A DNA stretch of 64,000 bases, taken from assembly GCA_003154195.1 (NCBI GenBank), contig PMCS01000029.1:24142-88141 (forward strand), given 5' to 3'. Both the position numbers and the translations under genes were made by a program. Below, piece after piece: positions 3,701-20,966 of this stretch. This DNA comes from Candidatus Omnitrophota bacterium (GTDB lineage: Bacteria; Omnitrophota; Gorgyraeia; Duberdicusellales; 4484-171). The notes beneath the pieces are model-generated. The model was not told where the DNA came from and ran no database searches. It saw only the letters and a program-made list of their open reading frames with translations. Every line of letters starts with the position of its first letter. The stretch's first letter is position 1.

Positions 3701-4694
3701 CTTCGCTCTTGATCCTGTTATTTTTTTCAGCGATCATCTGCTTTTTCTCATCTGCGATCATCAGCGCAGCGCGCAAGCGCCGCTTAAACCACGTTGCCAG
3801 CACAACCGCGTGATAAATCCGGCGTAATTCGGCAAACTGCTTGCCGTTATTCACCTCTTCCTCGATTGCCGGGACAATGATTTCGCGCATGATTTGACTG
3901 CTTAATTCGTTTAGCCCGTTAGGCCCGTTGTGCCGGTTTAGCCGGTTAGAAGACTTTAACCCTGCAACCGGCTTAACTGGCTCAACCGGCTCAACATTTT
4001 TCTTCATGGCAAGATAGTCGCTTTCAAGCATCACCTTCAATTTCGCTTCACCCACCATTGCCTTATCGCCATCGGCGTAAACTACCGCTTTATCCGGCAC
4101 AATCCATACCTTGCTGAAGGTATTGATTATCCGGTTACGGGCGGGGGCAAGCCCCGCCCCTACATTATTGTTGATCCTTTCATAAACCCTATCCCAGAAT
4201 TTTTTGCCCAAAGGCGATTCGGGATAGGTCAGGCTGGCGGATAATTGTTTTAAGATATAATCCTGGTTCAGCAGGCCTTCGCCCATATCGGTAGCATCTA
4301 AACCCGCGGGGATGACCCTATTTTGCTCATAAGGAGAAAGGTTAACCCAGAGGTCGTTTTCGGGTATAGTTAATGCAGCGAGAAAATATCTGATTAATTT
4401 TTCCGCATCCAATTTTAATTCTTCGTTAGAAGAATTAAAATTGCCGGAATCGATAATAAAATCTAACTTCAAAGGGTCACGGGGATAAAATTTAATACCC
4501 TTCAGGGTCGGTGGATTAAACGCCGGGCTTGCGCTGATAAGCGGATAGGCTTGCGGAGCGTTGACCAGCGTAGAAGCGGAAACGTTCACCCCCAGGCTCG
4601 TCGCCAATAAACAAAGCACCAGCGCCGGGGATACGGCCTTGATCAATAATAGTTTTTTAGTGCCCATCCTTACCATAGTATATAAATGTAACAT
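756..4694 (-). CDS. large secreted protein (1312 aa) of unknown function with a signal peptide and an internal duplicated domain of about 90 aa
   Basis: A long uninterrupted ORF. The N-terminus has a hydrophobic signal-like segment (LLLIKAVSPALVLCLLATSLG). Two paralogous segments are present: IIERGFLYPERLNRALNRAARLIRNARGQRIFERAFVNGSLQYLARDGKVALGAVGDEDIFIILN and IIEGDFLYPVRLNAVLNQAVARVVDGDGQRLIDRVFVSGSSMYLAQDGRVALAAVGDVDISIILN. A palindromic 9-mer repeat element lies in frame at 3908..3995. No family was recognised. Confidence 0.7.
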   Translation of the reverse strand: MLHLYTMVRMGTKKLLLIKAVSPALVLCLLATSLGVNVSASTLVNAPQAYPLISASPAFNPPTLKGIKFYPRDPLKLDFIIDSGNFNSSNEELKLDAEKLIRYFLAALTIPENDLWVNLSPYEQNRVIPAGLDATDMGEGLLNQDYILKQLSASLTYPESPLGKKFWDRVYERINNNVGAGLAPARNRIINTFSKVWIVPDKAVVYADGDKAMVGEAKLKVMLESDYLAMKKNVEPVEPVKPVAGLKSSNRLNRHNGPNGLNELSSQIMREIIVPAIEEEVNNGKQFAELRRIYHAVVLATWFKRRLRAALMIADEKKQMIAEKNNRIKSEAKRSLPEGDESNGPNWLNAFNLYIDKNKIKGIDKIDPKIKDNVYQKYLEAYKKGAYNIIKKEYVGTGLSPVRKQIRRRYFSGGCTLAGVSSALVERPFQPVEMESGKTVTARLRGAGSPAFVKNREEGDDRASHGAFSRSAVREYTSTSLSTSPGRGKMGDEEENPLFAELRTFVDVPEIKYFDFLPEDFGHYDVDKQNYRLITRETAPSMQLGQGVKAYVVEESKFILARNPPDDARLATEGISVCAGMGLFGANKKDTISGLGHFTLGMYDKDGHDFSVPVQEVMEKLPPDLTSLQVVFYTHENNAKERKILREAKKIIQDKFPFARVQRVLPQGRGGAAAMMVSGKNCGVIWRRDDGREKKALVKWGQGRAGSPVEDQGMREERRGMGDGEVKEKPAVPPIIERGFLYPERLNRALNRAARLIRNARGQRIFERAFVNGSLQYLARDGKVALGAVGDEDIFIILNKAGREMKKNLFRRRGIDRVDRGTMAADIFRKGFEKALKRILSYDKQRAFLDSRQAKTGAVFLSDSSYKTQFLKSLKERLADKDLFTRTERWALAGKEPLARDLKFLKKYTELKRLVEGDTVELRVLQKQLSRNSGDAAQMAELRKRVKKILAAGERRRLEQDLNDNIVAIRGRIEKIMNGRVAASPIIEGDFLYPVRLNAVLNQAVARVVDGDGQRLIDRVFVSGSSMYLAQDGRVALAAVGDVDISIILNDEGWRRFAVTGEEIRHAEIFRRKVLESILEHMEKDDLLLDEMGKFEPHIFRSMERYRMIVFESLEKRVFVEPFMGLLISQEISQEGAKRANAINKKIIKKYIELKHLILGIIDGEIRDRFLNAGDSETADLREEIETRFAAGELEQFKYALEHNEAAIMGRIEKMINGEGMVASSPFSSLYEEKTGVLPAKPEKTGGIDFNPSNLNIETKKVKPQAVLPASRSLPPVFSPVVFDPAVFEGFDFEIVAVSDFDPSAAEWALAK

Positions 4695-15579: not shown

Positions 15580-16905
15580 TCACGGCGTAACGGCATAAAG
15601 CTCATCCAGCGGACTCTTGGGAGCGTTACTCATATCCCGCAGAACATGAGTATAGATCATCGTCGTTTCCACATTCTTATGCCCCAGCAGCTCCTGCACC
15701 TCGCGAATGTTTACCCCGTTCTGCAAAAGATGCGTGGCAAAGCTATGGCGCATGGTATGAACCGTCGCGTGCTTGACAATACCCGCTTTGTTAACCGCGG
15801 CGCGCACCGCCTTCTGTATCGAAGTTTCATCGATATGATGCCGCCTCACCTTACCCGAACGCGGATCAACCGAAAGCTTGCTGGAAGGAAAAACATACTG
15901 CCAGCGCCATTCTTTTCCGGCGTTAGGCATCTTACGCCCTAAGCTGTCCGGTAAAAAAACTTCGCCATATCCGGAAACTAAATCTTTGTCATGAAGTTTT
16001 TTAACTTCTTCCAAATGCAAACGTAATTGCCCCTTAACCGCTTGCGGCAAAATCGTCGACCGATCCTTATCGCCCTTGGCCGCACGGACAAAAATTAAAT
16101 TATTATCGAAATCAATATCCTGCGCGCGAAGCCGCGCCAGTTCCATCAACCGCAAACCCGAGCCATAAAGCACCTGCGCGATCAATAAATCTCTTCCTTT
16201 GATCTGCTTGAATAATTCCTGAACCTCTCTTACCGACAATACCACCGGAAGCTTAAGCCCCCGCTTAGCCCTCACCGTTTTATCTAAATTACCCAGTTCG
16301 GCGCCAAGCACATCGCGAAATAAAAACAATAGCGCGTTAAACGCCTGATTCTGCGTGGATGACGACACTCGCTTATTAATCGCTAAAAACGTAAGAAAAT
16401 CAGTAACATCTTCTGACGATAATCCACTCGAACAAATCTCTTTCTTTTTTACTTCTGCCGTATATTCAAAAAATCGTTTAATCCAATCCAAGTAGGTGCG
16501 TTCCGTGCTGTAAGAAAAATGCTTAACCCGGATTAGCCGGCGGGCCTTCTCTAAAATATCTCCCGGGGTATCAGTGGGATCAGCCGAAATTTCCAAATTA
16601 GACGTTTTCTGCCCTTTAAAATGTTCAAAATAAATCTTCAAAGCATCCTGCGCCTGCCGTAACTGCCATTCGCTGGATTGCGCCCCTTCTAATAAGGCTA
16701 AAAATTTATTCTGCTGTTCGAGAAAAGATAGATTCCCATAATTTTGGGAAAACTTCAAAAACTTATCCACCCAAACCGCGCAATAAGATACATACTTAGA
16801 GTCAGTAAATTTCTTATCCAGCAAAAACTTTTGGAATTCCGGCAATACGTTTTCGTAGGATTTTTTCTTTTCTGCCAAGTTTCCCATGCTATACGGATTC
16901 CGCAT
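15580..16905 (-). CDS. intI: integron integrase (IntI-type tyrosine recombinase) with an N-terminal extension of about 105 aa
   Basis: The C-terminal half [92 protein letters not shown] aligns with IntI1 and VchIntIA. This includes the IntI-specific extra segment between the RHR and HxxR patches and the catalytic RHRY tyrosine. The gene is transcribed divergently from a downstream attC cassette array. Confidence 0.85.
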
Positions 16906-17263
16906 AATCTGATATTATAGAGCAAAGGCGGAACAATTCAATAAGAAAATGATATTTTTAGTGCGTAATCGTCATATTTTTGCTAAAATACACAAGGGTA
17001 CCAAAGAAAACACCGAATCCGTATATTAATTGTTGCGCGAAATCCAAATAATATAGAACCAGTATTTATTTCGCGCAACGCGGAGCTCAGGCTTCGCCGT
17101 TCCGCGCTTTGTCGCGCCTAAATTCAAAAATCGTACGCGCAACAAATCGCTCCAGCGGAATACGCAAAATGTAAGCAGGTAAATGCGCCACCTGTATTAT
17201 CAAAGGAACGCGCACTTACCTGCCACCTACACTTTGCGTATTCCGCTGAGCTCCGCGTTAGGC
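16906..17263. promoter_or_regulatory. putative attI / integron promoter region with nested long inverted repeats, ending at a GTTAGGC core-like site
   Basis: Perfect inverted repeats occur at 17032-17042/17068-17078 (11 bp), 17077-17090/17246-17259 (14 bp) and 17153-17168/17233-17248 (16 bp). GTTAGGC (matching GTTRRRY) lies at 17257-17263, about 10 nt before the first cassette ATG (17274). Confidence 0.4.
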
Positions 17264-17273
17264 CAAAAAATAA

Positions 17274-17861
17274 ATGAAAATTATTGCAATAATAGCGCTG
17301 GTCATTGGTGGATTGATTTCTTCTGGTAATTGGTCTACGATTTATCAATCACACAAAGACAAAAGACACGTTTCAACAATTCCTATTTTAGGAGCTATAT
17401 TCCTCGGCATTGGCCTAACATATTTTAAAGCAACTAGACCGCTTGCCTTGCTATGCTTGATTGCTGACTATGGAACGCTGCTCCTTATTATTTCAACTCC
17501 GCGGCTAATAAACGAAGCCTGGAAAACTAGCCGGTTTAATTTGGTTAACGCCCTTGCCGGTTGTTCCCAGTATACTGAATATAAATTAAATCTTTATAAA
17601 AAGGGAATTTTTGTAATCAGGGCAAAAGTTAATCCTCCTCAAGCAACCAATGAGCATGGCGCCTTAATCAAAGAGTTTGGTTTTGAAAGGCAATGGGAAC
17701 AAAAGAAAAACGTTATTGTTTTAAGCCGATATGCAAACAATAGAGAGGTTACACTAGTGCAAAGCAATAATAAATATATCTCCAGAGAAAGTAATTATCC
17801 CAAAGACAGAAAATGTAATTATGATATGTTGGATGGTATCGAATTTACAAAAAACGCCTAA
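17274..17861 (+). CDS. integron cassette ORF: hypothetical membrane-anchored protein (195 aa)
   Basis: It is the first ORF after the GTTAGGC junction. It is AT-rich relative to the flanking chromosome. There are two N-terminal hydrophobic helices and no recognisable family. Confidence 0.55.
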   Translation: MKIIAIIALVIGGLISSGNWSTIYQSHKDKRHVSTIPILGAIFLGIGLTYFKATRPLALLCLIADYGTLLLIISTPRLINEAWKTSRFNLVNALAGCSQYTEYKLNLYKKGIFVIRAKVNPPQATNEHGALIKEFGFERQWEQKKNVIVLSRYANNREVTLVQSNNKYISRESNYPKDRKCNYDMLDGIEFTKNA

Positions 17862-17951
17862 CAATTTCATCCAGCGGATTTTGCCTACGGCACCCGAAAT
17901 TTTCCCGCAAAAACATTAAAAATATGTTATAATTTGTTTGGAGGCAATCTT

Positions 17952-18170
17952 ATGAAAATAACCGATATCCCTAAAATTTCTCGCTTAAGTATAGCCGAAA
18001 AAATTTTATTCGTAGAAGAACTGTGGGATTCTATCTCGTCCAACAAACGCATCCCTGTCCCTGAATCTCATAAGGCGGAGCTGGATAGAAGGCTGCTTAA
18101 ATACCAAAACAATCGGGGACGCCTACTCTCCTTGAAAGAACTGCAAGCGCGAATAGAAAAAAGAAAATAA
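17952..18170 (+). CDS. antitoxin, putative addiction-module component (CHP02574-like), partner of the ParE/RelE toxin
   Basis: MKITDIPKISRLSIAEKILFVEELWDSISS...ELDRRLLKYQNNRGRLLSLKELQARIEKRK matches the small 'putative addiction module component' antitoxin family. A GGAGG ribosome-binding site and a TGTTATAAT -10-like box lie upstream. The stop is 3 nt before the toxin start. Confidence 0.7.
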   Translation: MKITDIPKISRLSIAEKILFVEELWDSISSNKRIPVPESHKAELDRRLLKYQNNRGRLLSLKELQARIEKRK

Positions 18171-18172
18171 CC

Positions 18173-18484
18173 ATGGGTTATTCGTTATCATTCCTTCCTG
18201 AAGTTGAAGAAGACGCTATCGGCGCGTATCTTTGGTATGAAGAAAAATCCCAAGGCCTCGGCGAAGATTTATTAAGAATATTTTATGCCGGCGCCGCTGA
18301 AATAGCCAGAACTCCCAATCTTTATCCCAGAGTCTATAAAAACTTCCATCGCAAACTTCTTAAACGCTTCCCCTACGCTGTCTATTTTTTTGTTGAAAGA
18401 AAAACTATTATCGTTTACGGATTATTCCATTGCGCCAGAAATCCGTATTTAATACAAGAAAAAATAAACAATAGACACTCCTAA
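18173..18484 (+). CDS. ParE/RelE-family toxin
   Basis: LSFLPEVEEDAIGAYLWYEEKS...FPYAVYFFVERKTIIVYGLFHCARNP fits the ParE/RelE fold consensus. It is immediately downstream of the antitoxin and its stop overlaps the start of the attC. Confidence 0.7.
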   Translation: MGYSLSFLPEVEEDAIGAYLWYEEKSQGLGEDLLRIFYAGAAEIARTPNLYPRVYKNFHRKLLKRFPYAVYFFVERKTIIVYGLFHCARNPYLIQEKINNRHS

Positions 18485-18608
18485 CCAGAAAATCCAGCCG
18501 ACCTGAACCGTTCTGCTTCGCGCTTTATTAGGAAGCATAGTCGCGTTGACGCGCTTCGCAGCAACGAGCCGGCACGAACGGTTCAGGCGGCTGATTATTG
18601 TGTTAGAC
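18479..18608 (+). repeat. integron attC site 1 (about 130 bp, imperfect palindrome, ends GTTAGAC)
   Basis: It begins with CCTAACC overlapping the toxin stop codon. The arm ATCCAGCCGACCTGAACC pairs with GGTTCAGGCGGCTGAT with a bulge, and the site ends ...TGTGTTAGAC. It is homologous to the sites at 19078, 19715 and 20163. Confidence 0.75.
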
Positions 18609-18644
18609 ATAAATAATTAATATAAAAACAAAAAAGGAGGGAAA

Positions 18645-19067
18645 ATGGATAAATTAACGAGAGAAGCTCAAGAACATGGTGAAATTTTTGAATCATTAAT
18701 CTTTTTCGAAAAATTAATACCTGTCTTGTCTGATAAAAATATTGAAAAATTCAAAAGCTTTCTCGATGAACATGCTGAGGATCATTTTGAATTTGAAGAA
18801 AAAGAAATATTCCCAATAATATTAGACAAAGGAACAAATGAAGAAAAAAATTTAATCGAAGAGTTACAAAGTCAGCATAAAGAAATACTGGATATGATCA
18901 ATCAATTAGATAAACTAGTGTCTACCCATGGCGCATCTTCCTCTGGAAATAATAAAGAAAAAATCATGAAACTGAACACAAAAATAATTGAATCACTGCT
19001 TGCGCATGCTCGTAAGGAAGATACTGAGATATTCCCTATTTTTAAAAAATATGGAAACAACATTTAA
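18645..19067 (+). CDS. cassette ORF: hemerythrin-like (HHE cation-binding) protein (140 aa)
   Basis: Repeated H...E / H..H..E spacing (EHGEIFE, DEHAEDHFEFEE, QSQHKEILD, LLAHARKEDTEIF) suggests a hemerythrin-like four-helix bundle. It is very AT-rich. An AAGGAGGG ribosome-binding site lies upstream. Confidence 0.45.
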   Translation: MDKLTREAQEHGEIFESLIFFEKLIPVLSDKNIEKFKSFLDEHAEDHFEFEEKEIFPIILDKGTNEEKNLIEELQSQHKEILDMINQLDKLVSTHGASSSGNNKEKIMKLNTKIIESLLAHARKEDTEIFPIFKKYGNNI

Positions 19068-19077
19068 AATAACAAAT

Positions 19078-19210
19078 GTCTAACCATCAAATCCAGCCGA
19101 CCTGAACCGCTTCTGCTTCGCCCTTTGTTAGGCAAGTAATAGCGTTGATGGGCTTCGCAGAAACAGGGGCACGGAAGGAGTGGTTCAGGCGGCTGATTAT
19201 ATTGTTAGAA
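19078..19210 (+). repeat. integron attC site 2 (about 133 bp, ends GTTAGAA)
   Basis: GTCTAACCATCAAATCCAGCCGACCTGAACC ... GGTTCAGGCGGCTGATTATATTGTTAGAA is about 85% identical to attC site 1. Confidence 0.75.
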
Positions 19211-19277
19211 CCAATAAAATAATAAAAAACTCGAAAAACAAAGGAAAATATGGTAGACTTAAATAGAGGTGGGAACA

Positions 19278-19484
19278 ATGAGCGAAATTATATTTATTAT
19301 TGAAAATTCCGACGAAGGCGGCTACACCGCCAAAGCCCTCGGTTATTCCATTTATACCGAGGCAGAAACCATGGAAGAGCTGAAAGAAAACATTAAAGAC
19401 GCGGTAAAATGCCACATTGACGCTAAAGAACTACCCCATATCGTTCGTCTTCACATGGTAAAAGACGAAGTAATGGCGATATGA
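19278..19484 (+). CDS. hicB: HicB-family antitoxin (UPF0150)
   Basis: MSEIIFIIENSDEGGYTAKALGYSIYTEAETMEELKENIKDAVKCHI matches the HicB N-terminal RNase-H-like fold consensus (EGGYTAxxPxLPGCxTxGETxEEAxxNxKEAI). A GAGGTGG ribosome-binding site lies upstream. It overlaps hicA by 4 nt. Confidence 0.7.
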   Translation: MSEIIFIIENSDEGGYTAKALGYSIYTEAETMEELKENIKDAVKCHIDAKELPHIVRLHMVKDEVMAI

Positions 19485-19720
19485 GACTACCCAGAGAAAT
19501 TAGCGGCGAAGAACTGGCAAAACTTCTCAAAAAATACGCCTACGAAATTACCCGACAAACCGGCAGCCACATGCGGCTTACTACCACCCTTCAAGGCGAA
19601 CACCACATTACCATCCCTGCGCATAAATATCTTAAAATCGGCACATTAAACGGAATTCTGTCCGATGTTGCCAATCATTTCAAAATAGATAAAAACGATT
19701 TAATTAAAGAATTGTTCTAA
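19481..19720 (+). CDS. hicA: HicA-family mRNA interferase toxin
   Basis: ISGEELAKLLKKYAYEITRQTGSHMRLT...ITIPAHKYLKIGTLNGILSDV matches HicA (xLxKxGWxxxRxxGSHxxxxHP...VPxHxxDLxxGTLxSILKQA). The ATGA overlap indicates translational coupling with hicB. Confidence 0.7.
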   Translation: MRLPREISGEELAKLLKKYAYEITRQTGSHMRLTTTLQGEHHITIPAHKYLKIGTLNGILSDVANHFKIDKNDLIKELF

Positions 19721-19797
19721 CCAACAAATCCAGCCGACCCTGCTCCGCCGTCGCTTCGCTCCTGGCTTCGCAGAGGCGGCTGATTTTTGTGTTAAAT
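19715..19797 (+). repeat. integron attC site 3 (short, about 83 bp, ends GTTAAAT)
   Basis: TTCTAACCAACAAATCCAGCCGACC ... GGCGGCTGATTTTTGTGTTAAAT. It has the same left and right arms as the other attC sites but a shorter centre. Confidence 0.7.
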
Positions 19798-19839
19798 AAT
19801 AAATGGGAATAACAACACGCTTTGATATAATGATTATAG

Positions 19840-20019
19840 ATGAATAAAAGAATCATAAAAATAACAAGCATTAAGAATAAGGACAATGCGTTTGCTTATT
19901 GGCTTTCAAAGCCGGCTAGCGAACGTATCGAAGCCGTCGAGATACTAAGGAAACAGCTCAATGGAAACGCAAAAAGATTTCAAAGAACTATTAGAATTAT
20001 TCAACAAGCACAAGGTTAA
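19840..20019 (+). CDS. small cassette ORF (59 aa), hypothetical
   Basis: The ATG at 19840 gives MNKRIIKITSIKNKDNAFAYWLSKPASERIEAVEILRKQLNGNAKRFQRTIRIIQQAQG. It falls below the 60-aa cut-off of the ORF track and overlaps the downstream pseudogene in another frame. Confidence 0.3.
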   Translation: MNKRIIKITSIKNKDNAFAYWLSKPASERIEAVEILRKQLNGNAKRFQRTIRIIQQAQG

Positions 20020-20162
20020 ATACATAATCGTCGGCGCCTACGCTCTGGCATTCCCATGGAAACACACCCGCCTACTTTATCGGCAAAAATGATTTTATCG
20101 TAAACAAAAAGTCCCTAGGCCGGCATAAAGACATGGCTGACATAGAATCTATCACTGAATAA
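19961..20162 (+). pseudogene. decayed cassette gene: nucleotidyltransferase-fold protein fragment with an internal deletion or frameshift
   Basis: The N-terminal piece METQKDFKELLELFNKHKVKYIIVGAYALAF matches the small nucleotidyltransferase family (LLxLLNxxxVxYLVIGGYA). After a frame break, only the C-terminal piece VNKKSLGRHKDMADIESITE* (RPKDLADIE-like) remains in a different frame. Confidence 0.4.
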
Positions 20163-20219
20163 TCATTTAACAAGCCAGCCGACCTCGCCTACGGCGGGCG
20201 ACGAATTTTTGTGTTAGAA
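20163..20219 (+). repeat. integron attC site 4 (short, about 57 bp, ends GTTAGAA)
   Basis: AAGCCAGCCGACCTCGCCTACGGCGGGCGACGAATTTTTGTGTTAGAA shares the CCAGCCGACC left arm and TTTTTGTGTTAGAA right end. Confidence 0.6.
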
Positions 20220-20231
20220 AAGGGAAAAACA

Positions 20232-20825
20232 ATGAAATGGGTAGCTGTTTCACTATTGCTCATGATAACCCTGGGGATAAATTCCAGTGTGGAGCCGGCA
20301 TCATCTGCCGCTCAAGATGAACACATCGAAAAACTCATCCAAGCGTTATACACGCATCCCTGGCCGGGCGCGGAAATGTTTGCCGAGCCGATGGAGTGGG
20401 ATTTTCACTTCACCGAGCCGATACAGGCCCTGCTCGAAATCGGCGCGGCGGCTCAGAAACCGCTTTTAGCGCGGCTTTCGGATCCGGCGATAACGGACCA
20501 GGTCATTTTTTTGCTGGGTGGTGTCGGCGACGAAGAGTCGGTTGGCCCGATAATCGCCGCGATGGAACAGGCGTCAAACCTGCCGGCAGAAAAACGTAAA
20601 AGAATCCTCGAGGTGGGAAATTTGGCACTGACGAATATCACCGTAGCGGATATAATCTGGCACCATGGAGGCGGTATTGTCCTTGACCGCTGCCCGGATG
20701 ACCCGGCCCAATGCTGGGCCCAATGGTGGAAACAAAATAAGGCGACTTTTCGGGTGCGCGATATAAAACAAAGCCGGCGCTACAGCAACTACCCGGGCTA
20801 TGGCATCTATAAAGGCCTGCCGTAA
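20232..20825 (+). CDS. cassette ORF: secreted hypothetical protein (197 aa)
   Basis: MKWVAVSLLLMITLGINSSVEPASSA is a signal peptide. The ATG at 20232 lies just after the attC core. The longer track ORF starts at GTG inside the attC. Confidence 0.55.
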   Translation: MKWVAVSLLLMITLGINSSVEPASSAAQDEHIEKLIQALYTHPWPGAEMFAEPMEWDFHFTEPIQALLEIGAAAQKPLLARLSDPAITDQVIFLLGGVGDEESVGPIIAAMEQASNLPAEKRKRILEVGNLALTNITVADIIWHHGGGIVLDRCPDDPAQCWAQWWKQNKATFRVRDIKQSRRYSNYPGYGIYKGLP

Positions 20826-20966
20826 ACTCCTGTCACCGTTTTCCAACAAATCGTTTCAGCGCACCCGCGAAAAGCGCGAACCGCTTGATTCTTTCTTTAT
20901 AGCCCTACCTTGCGGTGATGATAATTTATATAAGAAAAGCGGAATTGGCGAAAAAGACAGGAAGCG

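Follow-up and report, generated by a model that had tools for sequence, protein, structure and literature searches.

Type II toxin-antitoxin (TA) operons are established residents of the sedentary chromosomal integrons of Vibrio, where parDE, higBA, relBE and phd-doc each form one attC-bounded cassette with its own promoter and where TA-mediated counter-selection of cassette excision has been documented (Richard et al., 2024, PMC13108822). Two other described systems bear on the locus considered here. The ParDE2 complex of Mycobacterium tuberculosis is represented by PDB entry 8C26 (PMC10899793); its toxin, ParE2, is a gyrase poison that traps cleavage complexes (PMC4906023, PMC10899793), and its antitoxin, ParD2, is assigned to the Unstab_antitox superfamily (PMC4906023). 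Class 2 hicBA operons, one of the two most prevalent hicBA classes, place hicB first and encode a small HicB (63-103 codons) with no DNA-binding domain, together with a HicA of 60-85 amino acids (PMC10865869). Here we describe relatives of both systems in a 64,000-nucleotide stretch of DNA from a Candidatus Omnitrophota bacterium (contig PMCS01000029.1), the whole of which we call the window.

We consider it likely that a parDE2-like cassette and a class 2 hicBA cassette, each self-expressed, bracket a promoter-less hemerythrin-like gene, and that loss of a cassette is penalised. The region comprises three cassettes in a row from a small chromosomal integron of the sedentary kind, probably in an Omnitrophota host as judged from the best homologues. 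The nearest named homologues of the cargo and of the integrase belong to Candidatus Omnitrophota, and all the open reading frames (ORFs) reported by a first-pass annotation of this DNA are present at their positions. The central features are the following.

17925..17933, plus strand: TGTTATAAT, a perfect extended -10 element (TGnTATAAT), 6 nt upstream of GGAGG
17940-17944, plus strand: GGAGG ribosome-binding site, 7 nt upstream of the antitoxin ATG
17952..18170, plus strand: ParD2-like antitoxin of the Unstab_antitox/TIGR02574 type, 72 amino acids from ATG
18173..18484, plus strand: ParE-fold toxin, 103 amino acids
18645..19067, plus strand: single-domain hemerythrin-like (HHE) protein, predicted di-iron, 140 amino acids, AT-rich
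19231..19259, plus strand: candidate hicBA promoter within the cassette (TCGAAA, 17-nt spacer, TGgTAGACT)
19278..19484, plus strand: small HicB-like antitoxin with no DNA-binding domain, 68 amino acids
19481..19720, plus strand: HicA toxin, 79 amino acids

Cassette array and the proposed cost of cassette loss

The array comprises about seven cassettes within about 3.9 kb, with housekeeping genes on both sides. It has the divergent layout of an integron, in which intI lies on the minus strand next to cassettes that run on the plus strand.

15580..16905, minus strand: intI integron integrase gene, 441 amino acids, or 435 from a downstream ATG
Cassette 0, plus strand: short, no ORF; attC0 at 17137..17263, whose R' GTTAGGC at 17257-17263 is the start of the 195-residue cassette
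Cassette 1, plus strand: 195-residue ORF at 17274..17861; decayed attC1 remnant at 17856..17932, with R'' GCCTAAC, 8-nt spacer and CCAGCGGATT kept and the 3' half eroded
Cassette 2, plus strand: ParDE-like pair; attC2 at 18479..18608, R'' TCCTAAC overlapping the toxin stop codon, R' GTTAGAC, fold z = -4.96, 80.4 bits
Cassette 3, plus strand: hemerythrin-like gene; attC3 at 19078..19210, R'' GTCTAAC, R' GTTAGAA, fold z = -4.08, 83.6 bits
Cassette 4, plus strand: hicBA; attC4 at 19715..19797, R'' TTCTAAC overlapping the hicA stop codon, R' GTTAAAT, fold z = -2.75, 85.8 bits
Cassette 5 (19798..20219), plus strand: 59-residue ORF and a broken nucleotidyltransferase-like gene; attC5 at 20165-20219, 37.4 bits with the covariance model
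Cassette 6, plus strand: GC-rich gene of 197 or 204 amino acids; degenerate site at ~20843-20905

The integrase scores 409 bits against TIGR02249 (cut-off 265; residues 117-436 aligned) and also matches PF00589 and PF13495. Its N-terminal extension of about 115 residues has no family match; judged by eye, it looks like a second SAM-like core-binding repeat. Relatives with 55-63% identity come from metagenome-assembled genomes of Omnitrophota, Nitrospirota, Smithella/Syntrophales and Planctomycetia. Their alignments start at residues 1-20, and the extension is thus kept. When the cassette proteins were searched with tblastn against 80 loci with related integrases, we recovered only two distant HicA matches and one homologue of the 59-residue protein, so the cargo is not common to related integrons.

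The attC sites to the right of the three central cassettes are well formed. In attC2, attC3 and attC4, R'' (nYCTAAC) is followed by an 8-nt spacer and CCAGCCGACC, then by GGCGGCTG, another 8-nt spacer and R' (GTTRRRn); their bottom-strand folds pair the R boxes and leave a T and a G bulged. The attC0 site, which folds on the bottom strand at -40.7 kcal/mol (z = -9.1), has the R''-8 nt-CCAGCGG layout of the other sites. A covariance model trained on five attC sites of this array recovered only those five in the window; attC0 scored 61 bits, as a member of the training set. In 783 kb from 74 other loci, the model found 47 sites, every one upstream of a related intI and 44 of the 47 on the opposite strand, which is independent evidence that these are genuine attC sites. 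One other Omnitrophota integron (locus L064, 134-7002, minus strand) carries at least 11 attC matches, and one of its cassettes encodes a GNAT acetyltransferase (161 amino acids), a small HicB (67 amino acids, PF15919 30.6 bits) and a HicA (68 amino acids), all with 4-nt overlaps.

Six cassettes carry ORFs, and in five of them the six bases that follow G|TT at the start exactly complement the cassette's own R'', as expected for circularising units. The two ends agree exactly in the hemerythrin cassette (GTTAGAC with GTCTAAC) and in the hicBA cassette (GTTAGAA with TTCTAAC); the left boundary of the ParDE cassette, where attC1 is degenerate, has two mismatches (GTTATAA versus TCCTAAC). The attC1 remnant folds poorly (z = -0.94), was undetected by the covariance model at E <= 10 with filters off, and has no GTTRRRY at the expected 10 nt; its L' remnant lies 17 nt from the nearest GTT, which is inside the TA promoter box, versus 10 nt in the five good sites. 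Two candidates for its R' were set aside on spacing: ATTAAAA at 17915, as a mutated R', stands at 6 nt, and GTTATAA at 17926 at 17 nt, where 10 nt is expected. The earlier statement that each of the three cassettes sits on its own attC therefore holds for their 3' sites; the site to the left of the ParDE cassette is decayed. Given the decay of attC1, the ParDE pair may now be fused with the preceding 195-residue gene.

The analysis shows to which families and folds the proteins belong, which key residues they keep, where the attC sites lie, and that promoter elements and two-gene modules are conserved. Toxicity and its neutralisation, gyrase and mRNA as targets, the activity of the promoters and any stabilising effect belong to a working model that we infer. 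The 72-residue antitoxin would neutralise the 103-residue ParE-fold toxin, a likely poison of gyrase, with the operon read from its own extended -10 element, TGTTATAAT. The small HicB would neutralise HicA, which would cleave mRNA with His30 as its catalytic residue, and hicBA would be read from a promoter inside its cassette. Each upstream partner would block its toxin through direct binding, and both operons would be expressed independently of the integron Pc promoter. If a cassette were excised or deleted, the stable toxin would outlast the decaying antitoxin and the cell would be killed or arrested. Such TA expression independent of Pc would mean that cassette loss frees the toxin, and this toxicity would penalise loss of the TA cassettes and also of the hemerythrin gene that they enclose.

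Vibrio integrons offer a close comparison, and ParE-type toxins are also among their TA cassettes (PMC13108822). The Vibrio arrays exceed 100 cassettes, versus about seven here; the host phylum, the attC type and the integrase clade, with its N-terminal extension in our case, differ as well, and the ParDE cassette described here has a decayed attC on its left. The idea that TA cassettes stabilise large arrays, which the first-pass annotation mentioned, comes from arrays of more than 10 cassettes (PMC13108822); in an array this small the large-array rationale may not apply, and stabilisation would be a conjecture from analogy. The array is also found on six metagenome contigs, and its proteins on a 429,721 bp contig, but the six copies are 99.9-100% identical and so are uninformative on selection, stability or cassette turnover.

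It is distinctly less probable, though far from negligible, that chance brought the TA pairs into cassettes, as selfish passengers or as modules of abortive infection against phage, and that they do not stabilise the array. Outside integrons, the same modules occur flanked by housekeeping genes in at least five other contexts, which makes their residence in an integron incidental; this array numbers only about seven cassettes, and the contexts of HicA have been argued to indicate phage defence (PMC10865869). On the other side, PADLOC matched no defence model to any protein of the window, and experiments on integron arrays have demonstrated both an enrichment of TA modules and killing tied to excision (PMC13108822). 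Passenger or defence roles and a stabilising role are not mutually exclusive. We continue to favour TA cassettes whose loss would be penalised.

The ParDE-type pair and its probable promoter

The first TA pair had been annotated as a ParE-type toxin with a TIGR02574 antitoxin, and this description is borne out. The antitoxin scores 55.6 bits against PF09720 (cut-off 23.3, E 5.5e-15) and 53.5 bits against TIGR02574 (cut-off 31.9, E 1.8e-14). Its homologues likewise have 72 amino acids, and its gene lies directly 5' of the toxin gene with a 2-nt gap, a pairing kept in every locus examined. The 103-residue protein is a ParE-fold toxin by its homologues, its profile and its predicted structure. 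Several of its 97 homologues are named RelE/ParE or already carry PF05016, and 19 of 22 aligned homologues match PF05016 (E <= 0.01). The family profile aligns over its full length with PDB 8c26, 'Toxin ParE2' (E 1.2e-10), its sole sequence-level match in the PDB. An AlphaFold2 (AF2) model (pLDDT 89.6, pTM 0.82) shows a helical hairpin (H9-25, H29-46) followed by strands. The best 18 PDB matches of this model in Foldseek are all ParE toxins (E 3e-5 to 1e-3, TMq 0.71-0.77), headed by 8c26_A (TM 0.76/0.89, rmsd 1.3 A), and structures of RelE, YoeB and HigB rank below them (TMq 0.45-0.59). R101, invariant in the family, aligns with Arg102 of M. tuberculosis ParE2 (MtParE2), one of its two toxicity residues.

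Some results pull the other way. The toxin itself has no Pfam match even at E 10, and so falls outside the gathering threshold of PF05016; the antitoxin matches no PDB chain by sequence in phmmer, ParD2 included, apart from a spurious ferritin match; and Glu98, the other toxicity residue of MtParE2, aligns with Lys97 of the toxin. A Pfam search of the TA proteins thus gives significant matches for the antitoxin and for HicA and none for the ParE-like toxin and the HicB-like antitoxin, whose assignments come from profiles, structure and neighbourhood. NCBIfam likewise yielded no significant match for these last two proteins.

By analogy with M. tuberculosis ParE2, the toxin most likely traps DNA gyrase cleavage complexes. 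The two systems (Rv2142A/Rv2142c; PDB 8C26) share a full-length profile match, a 1.3 A superposition, a predicted C-terminal helix and the Arg102/R101 pair. They differ in that identity is only ~21%, Glu98 is replaced by Lys, the gene junction is a 2-nt gap here versus a 4 bp overlap in M. tuberculosis, and the module described here is an integron cassette in another phylum, from a family known from sequence and model alone.

ParE and RelE belong to one superfamily under a single Pfam model, PF05016, and the toxin could in principle be a RelE-type ribosome-dependent mRNA nuclease, or have some other activity, and not be a gyrase poison. RelE, YoeB and HigB structures are also retrieved for the toxin model with probability > 0.9, the family keeps H86 and R89 without exception, and these could act in catalysis, and MtParE2 Glu98 is not kept. 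We regard such an activity as unlikely: the 18 top structural matches are ParE without exception, at a clear distance from the RelE-like structures (TM 0.71-0.77 versus 0.45-0.59), the only PDB match by sequence is ParE2 at full length, a long helical hairpin stands at the N-terminus of the model, and the family has no conserved C-terminal Tyr. If the toxin were of the RelE type, the remaining picture would be unaltered. The ParE reading is the one carried forward here.

A promoter-like box immediately upstream of this pair, making the cassette self-expressing, had also been proposed, and TGTTATAAT is indeed present and kept in homologous modules elsewhere. Modules with 76-85% toxin identity lie between housekeeping genes in four non-integron contexts.

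Context 1: beta-oxidation operon, loci L011 and L014-L016
Context 2: ast operon, locus L013
Context 3: TA island, loci L017-L020
Context 4: downstream of ilvH, locus L101

In all four, a -10 box stands at a constant distance from an invariant GGAGG, and the spacers and upstream sequence vary. The boxes found among the modules are TGTTATAAT, TGTTATACT, TGCTATAAT and the weaker GGCATAAT; the match to TGTTATAAT is exact or has one change in three of the four contexts and is weaker in the fourth. Two of the variants, TGCTATAAT and GGCATAAT, have no GTT, and the covariance model detects no attC beside the non-integron TA copies. Conservation of the box in loci with no attC, and in two forms with no GTT, reflects a promoter and not an attC core. 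Its persistence across the four contexts supports a real promoter, as far as comparison of sequences can do so. For the same want of attC, we dropped the notion that the non-integron TA copies are recently inserted cassettes; only L007, a locus with a hicBA module, has an attC-like 5' half.

The promoter has its weak points. No good -35 accompanies TGTTATAAT, and over its whole length the window shows no enrichment of TGnTATAAT (4 found versus 2.75 expected). A generic sigma-70 scan reported neither TA promoter, because their -35 elements are weak. In the integron, TGTTATAAT coincides with the decayed right end of attC1. That it is merely the R' core (GTTATAA) of this upstream attC, with the TA genes read from Pc like the other cassettes, is highly improbable: the box does sit at the expected end of attC1, contains GTT and lacks a -35, and every other cassette starts at GTTRRRY, but it is kept in non-integron copies that have no attC, two variants there have no GTT, its distance to GGAGG is constant while the spacer sequence changes, it lies 17 nt and not 10 nt from the L' remnant, and GTTATAA itself breaks GTTRRRY.

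With TGTTATAAT read as a promoter, the coincidence with attC1 invites a further idea. The conserved ParDE-like unit spans exactly its own -10 box (TGTTATAAT, with its GTT) to the stop codon (TCCTAA), and in the integron these native ends occupy the positions expected for the R' core and the R'' core. The module might have been caught in the course of exchange, inside a single phylum, between integron cassettes and ordinary sites on the chromosome. We rate this as a long shot. If it were true, the locus would show how a gene pair gains attC and turns into a cassette or, alternatively, how the promoter of a TA pair erases an attC and fuses the neighbouring cassette to its own. Separately, in a WOR_2-type lineage whose upstream gene is a thiolase, sequence resembling the thiolase 3' end occurs on both sides of the ParDE-like module, ~60-130 nt past the toxin stop in L014-L016 and at 4680-4747 in L011. 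These flanks hint that a long stretch of the target was duplicated where the module inserted.

The hicBA and hemerythrin-like cassettes

The second pair had been described as HicB followed by HicA with a 4-nt ATGA overlap. This holds: the ATGA lies at 19481-19484, HicA is identified by PF07927, and HicB by profile and fold. HicA scores 43.2 bits against PF07927 (cut-off 27, E 4.4e-11). Its G28-S29-H30 is invariant among homologues; at the aligned positions 9svk has GSH, and 4c26, a Burkholderia pseudomallei HicA chain, has GSA. We take 4c26 to be the H24A mutant of that protein. A phmmer search of HicA against the PDB gave spurious matches only (designed helical repeat proteins).

The product of 19278..19484 is a class 2 HicB by profile, fold and neighbourhood evidence. 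Its family has 2,281 representatives at E <= 1e-3, and in the PDB the family profile matches 2yzt (TTHA1756) with E 1.3e-3 and, with E 0.066, the HicB of E. coli. Aligned with hhalign to the Pfam-positive short HicB of the L064 cassette, it reaches a probability of 91.7% and E 7.9e-7. The AF2 model (pLDDT 83.7) has a beta-beta-beta-alpha-beta topology, and the top Foldseek probabilities belong to HicB-fold antitoxins (0.98 for 3k6q, 0.92 for 2yzt). The gene is always beside hicA in the loci examined, and the same module of 68 and 79 amino acids with a 4-nt overlap recurs in other genomes, outside integrons. To be set against this assignment are a score of 13.5 bits for PF15919, below its cut-off of 27 and thus short of the Pfam definition of HicB, and the lack of any Foldseek match at E < 0.1. 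Among 36 family members, none matches Pfam at E <= 0.01.

The module resembles the class 2 hicBA described by Gerdes (2024, PMC10865869) and TTHA1756 (PDB 2YZT) in that hicB is first, small and devoid of a DNA-binding domain, the genes overlap, and the GSH histidine is kept. It departs from them in that its HicB family falls under the Pfam HicB thresholds and is unusually uniform, with 76-96% identity over hundreds to thousands of database clusters. The first-pass annotation treated the hicB-first order as a reversal of the common arrangement; this was mistaken, since the order is that of class 2, which is among the two most prevalent classes (PMC10865869).

The candidate promoter within the hicBA cassette falls below threshold in the generic scan. 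It has counterparts upstream of homologous hicBA in L007 (TAGAAA..TGGTATACT) and in L008-L010 (TTGAAG..TGTTAAACT). In the non-integron Omnitrophota locus L007, hicBA lies between two nearly identical copies of a direct repeat, GTCGTAACGTAATTA on its upstream side (3917-3931) and GTCCGCAACGTAATTA on its downstream side (4481-4496), and the attC-like 5' half (TTCTAATAACTCAATCCAGC) lies at 4440-4470, right after the hicA stop codon.

The best 120 of 587 HicB-like matches and the best 120 of 3,451 HicA matches (E <= 1e-3) have 76-100% identity to the query, and this uniformity suggests recent, wide horizontal spread of the hicBA family. The source names include Omnitrophota, Planctomycetes and Sedimentisphaerales.

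The gene between the two pairs had been called a very AT-rich HHE/hemerythrin-like gene, and it is one. Its product scores 55 bits against PF01814 (cut-off 25.3, E 1.5e-14), and its GC content is 0.29-0.30, versus ~0.36-0.45 in the rest of the array, the GC-rich last cassette excepted. In an alignment with YtfE, H47/E51, H78 and H121/E125 fall on its HxxxE, H and HxxxE motifs, at positions that we take to bind iron in that protein. The scores fall far below the cut-offs for RIC (TIGR03652, 32 bits versus 204.7) and for bacteriohemerythrin (NF033749, 22.3 versus 84). The protein shares its HHE domain and these aligned ligands with the hemerythrin-like domain of E. coli YtfE/RIC (PDB 5FNN) and with bacteriohemerythrins; unlike YtfE/RIC, it stands alone at 140 amino acids with no ScdA_N domain. 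The most fitting description is that of a stand-alone HHE protein, predicted to bind a di-iron centre, with O2 or NO sensing, or iron handling, as candidate roles. A strong ribosome-binding site, AAGGAGGG, precedes the ATG and no promoter-like element was seen ahead of the gene, which is probably expressed by read-through from upstream. In one metagenome copy of the array (L001, 6473-6859), an in-frame 36-bp deletion shortens the protein to 128 amino acids from 140.

Neighbouring cassettes and implications

Next to hicBA, cassette 5 is decayed. Its features are the following.

19823-19831, plus strand: TGATATAAT box, 8 nt ahead of the ATG of the 59-residue ORF
19840..20019, plus strand: intact 59-residue ORF

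The box placement suggests a near-leaderless transcript for the 59-residue ORF, as a reading of the sequence. The nucleotidyltransferase-like gene that follows is a pseudogene with ~73 internal codons lost and a frameshift. An intact homologous cassette in another integron locus (L032, 4998-5690, minus strand) encodes proteins of 57 and 147 amino acids with sub-threshold DUF6036/AbiEii matches, and has the same box 6 nt ahead of its ATG. Cassette 5 is thus a probable third TA-like module, now decayed.

The remaining cassettes are less informative. The 195-residue ORF at 17274..17861 has a hydrophobic N-terminus and a stop codon within GCCTAAC; Pfam and NCBIfam scans gave it no family assignment, with DUF3397 matching below threshold only. 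Between intI and this first ORF cassette (window 17032-17263) lies the ORF-less cassette, whose repeats are nested: an inverted repeat with two perfect 12-bp arms (17032-17043 / 17068-17079), an outer perfect 11-bp repeat (17080-90 / 17246-56), a long inner hairpin folding at z = -9.1, and two copies of GCGCAAC (17073-79 and 17137-43), either of which could act as R'' for the single R' GTTAGGC. A search of Rfam returned only a spurious, sub-threshold miRNA-precursor match on the attC0 hairpin. At the other end, the last cassette gene (window 20211-20905; 197 amino acids from ATG 20232 or 204 from GTG 20211) has a GC content of ~0.55, versus ~0.40 for the remaining array, a signal-peptide-like N-terminus and no family match. 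Its terminal attC is degenerate, with TTCCAAC kept and GTTRRRY absent, and was undetected by the covariance model in the window.

The components of this locus and their arrangement are of known kinds: this is ordinary integron cargo and exposes no new principle, and the JGI annotation already gave the same description for four of the five proteins. Beyond the first-pass annotation, our analysis adds the conserved promoter footprints, the decayed attC under the ParDE promoter and the probable decayed third TA-like cassette. It provides well-resolved TA cassettes in an integron from a candidate phylum that has received little study, as well as a comparative footprint of cassette-internal promoters. 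It also brings out two families that are partly missed by current Pfam models, one ParDE2-like (Unstab_antitox plus ParE) and the other a very uniform hicBA family of class 2. An attC decayed under a TA promoter, together with modules of the same kind outside integrons, could be of modest use for questions of how cassettes fuse and where they originate.

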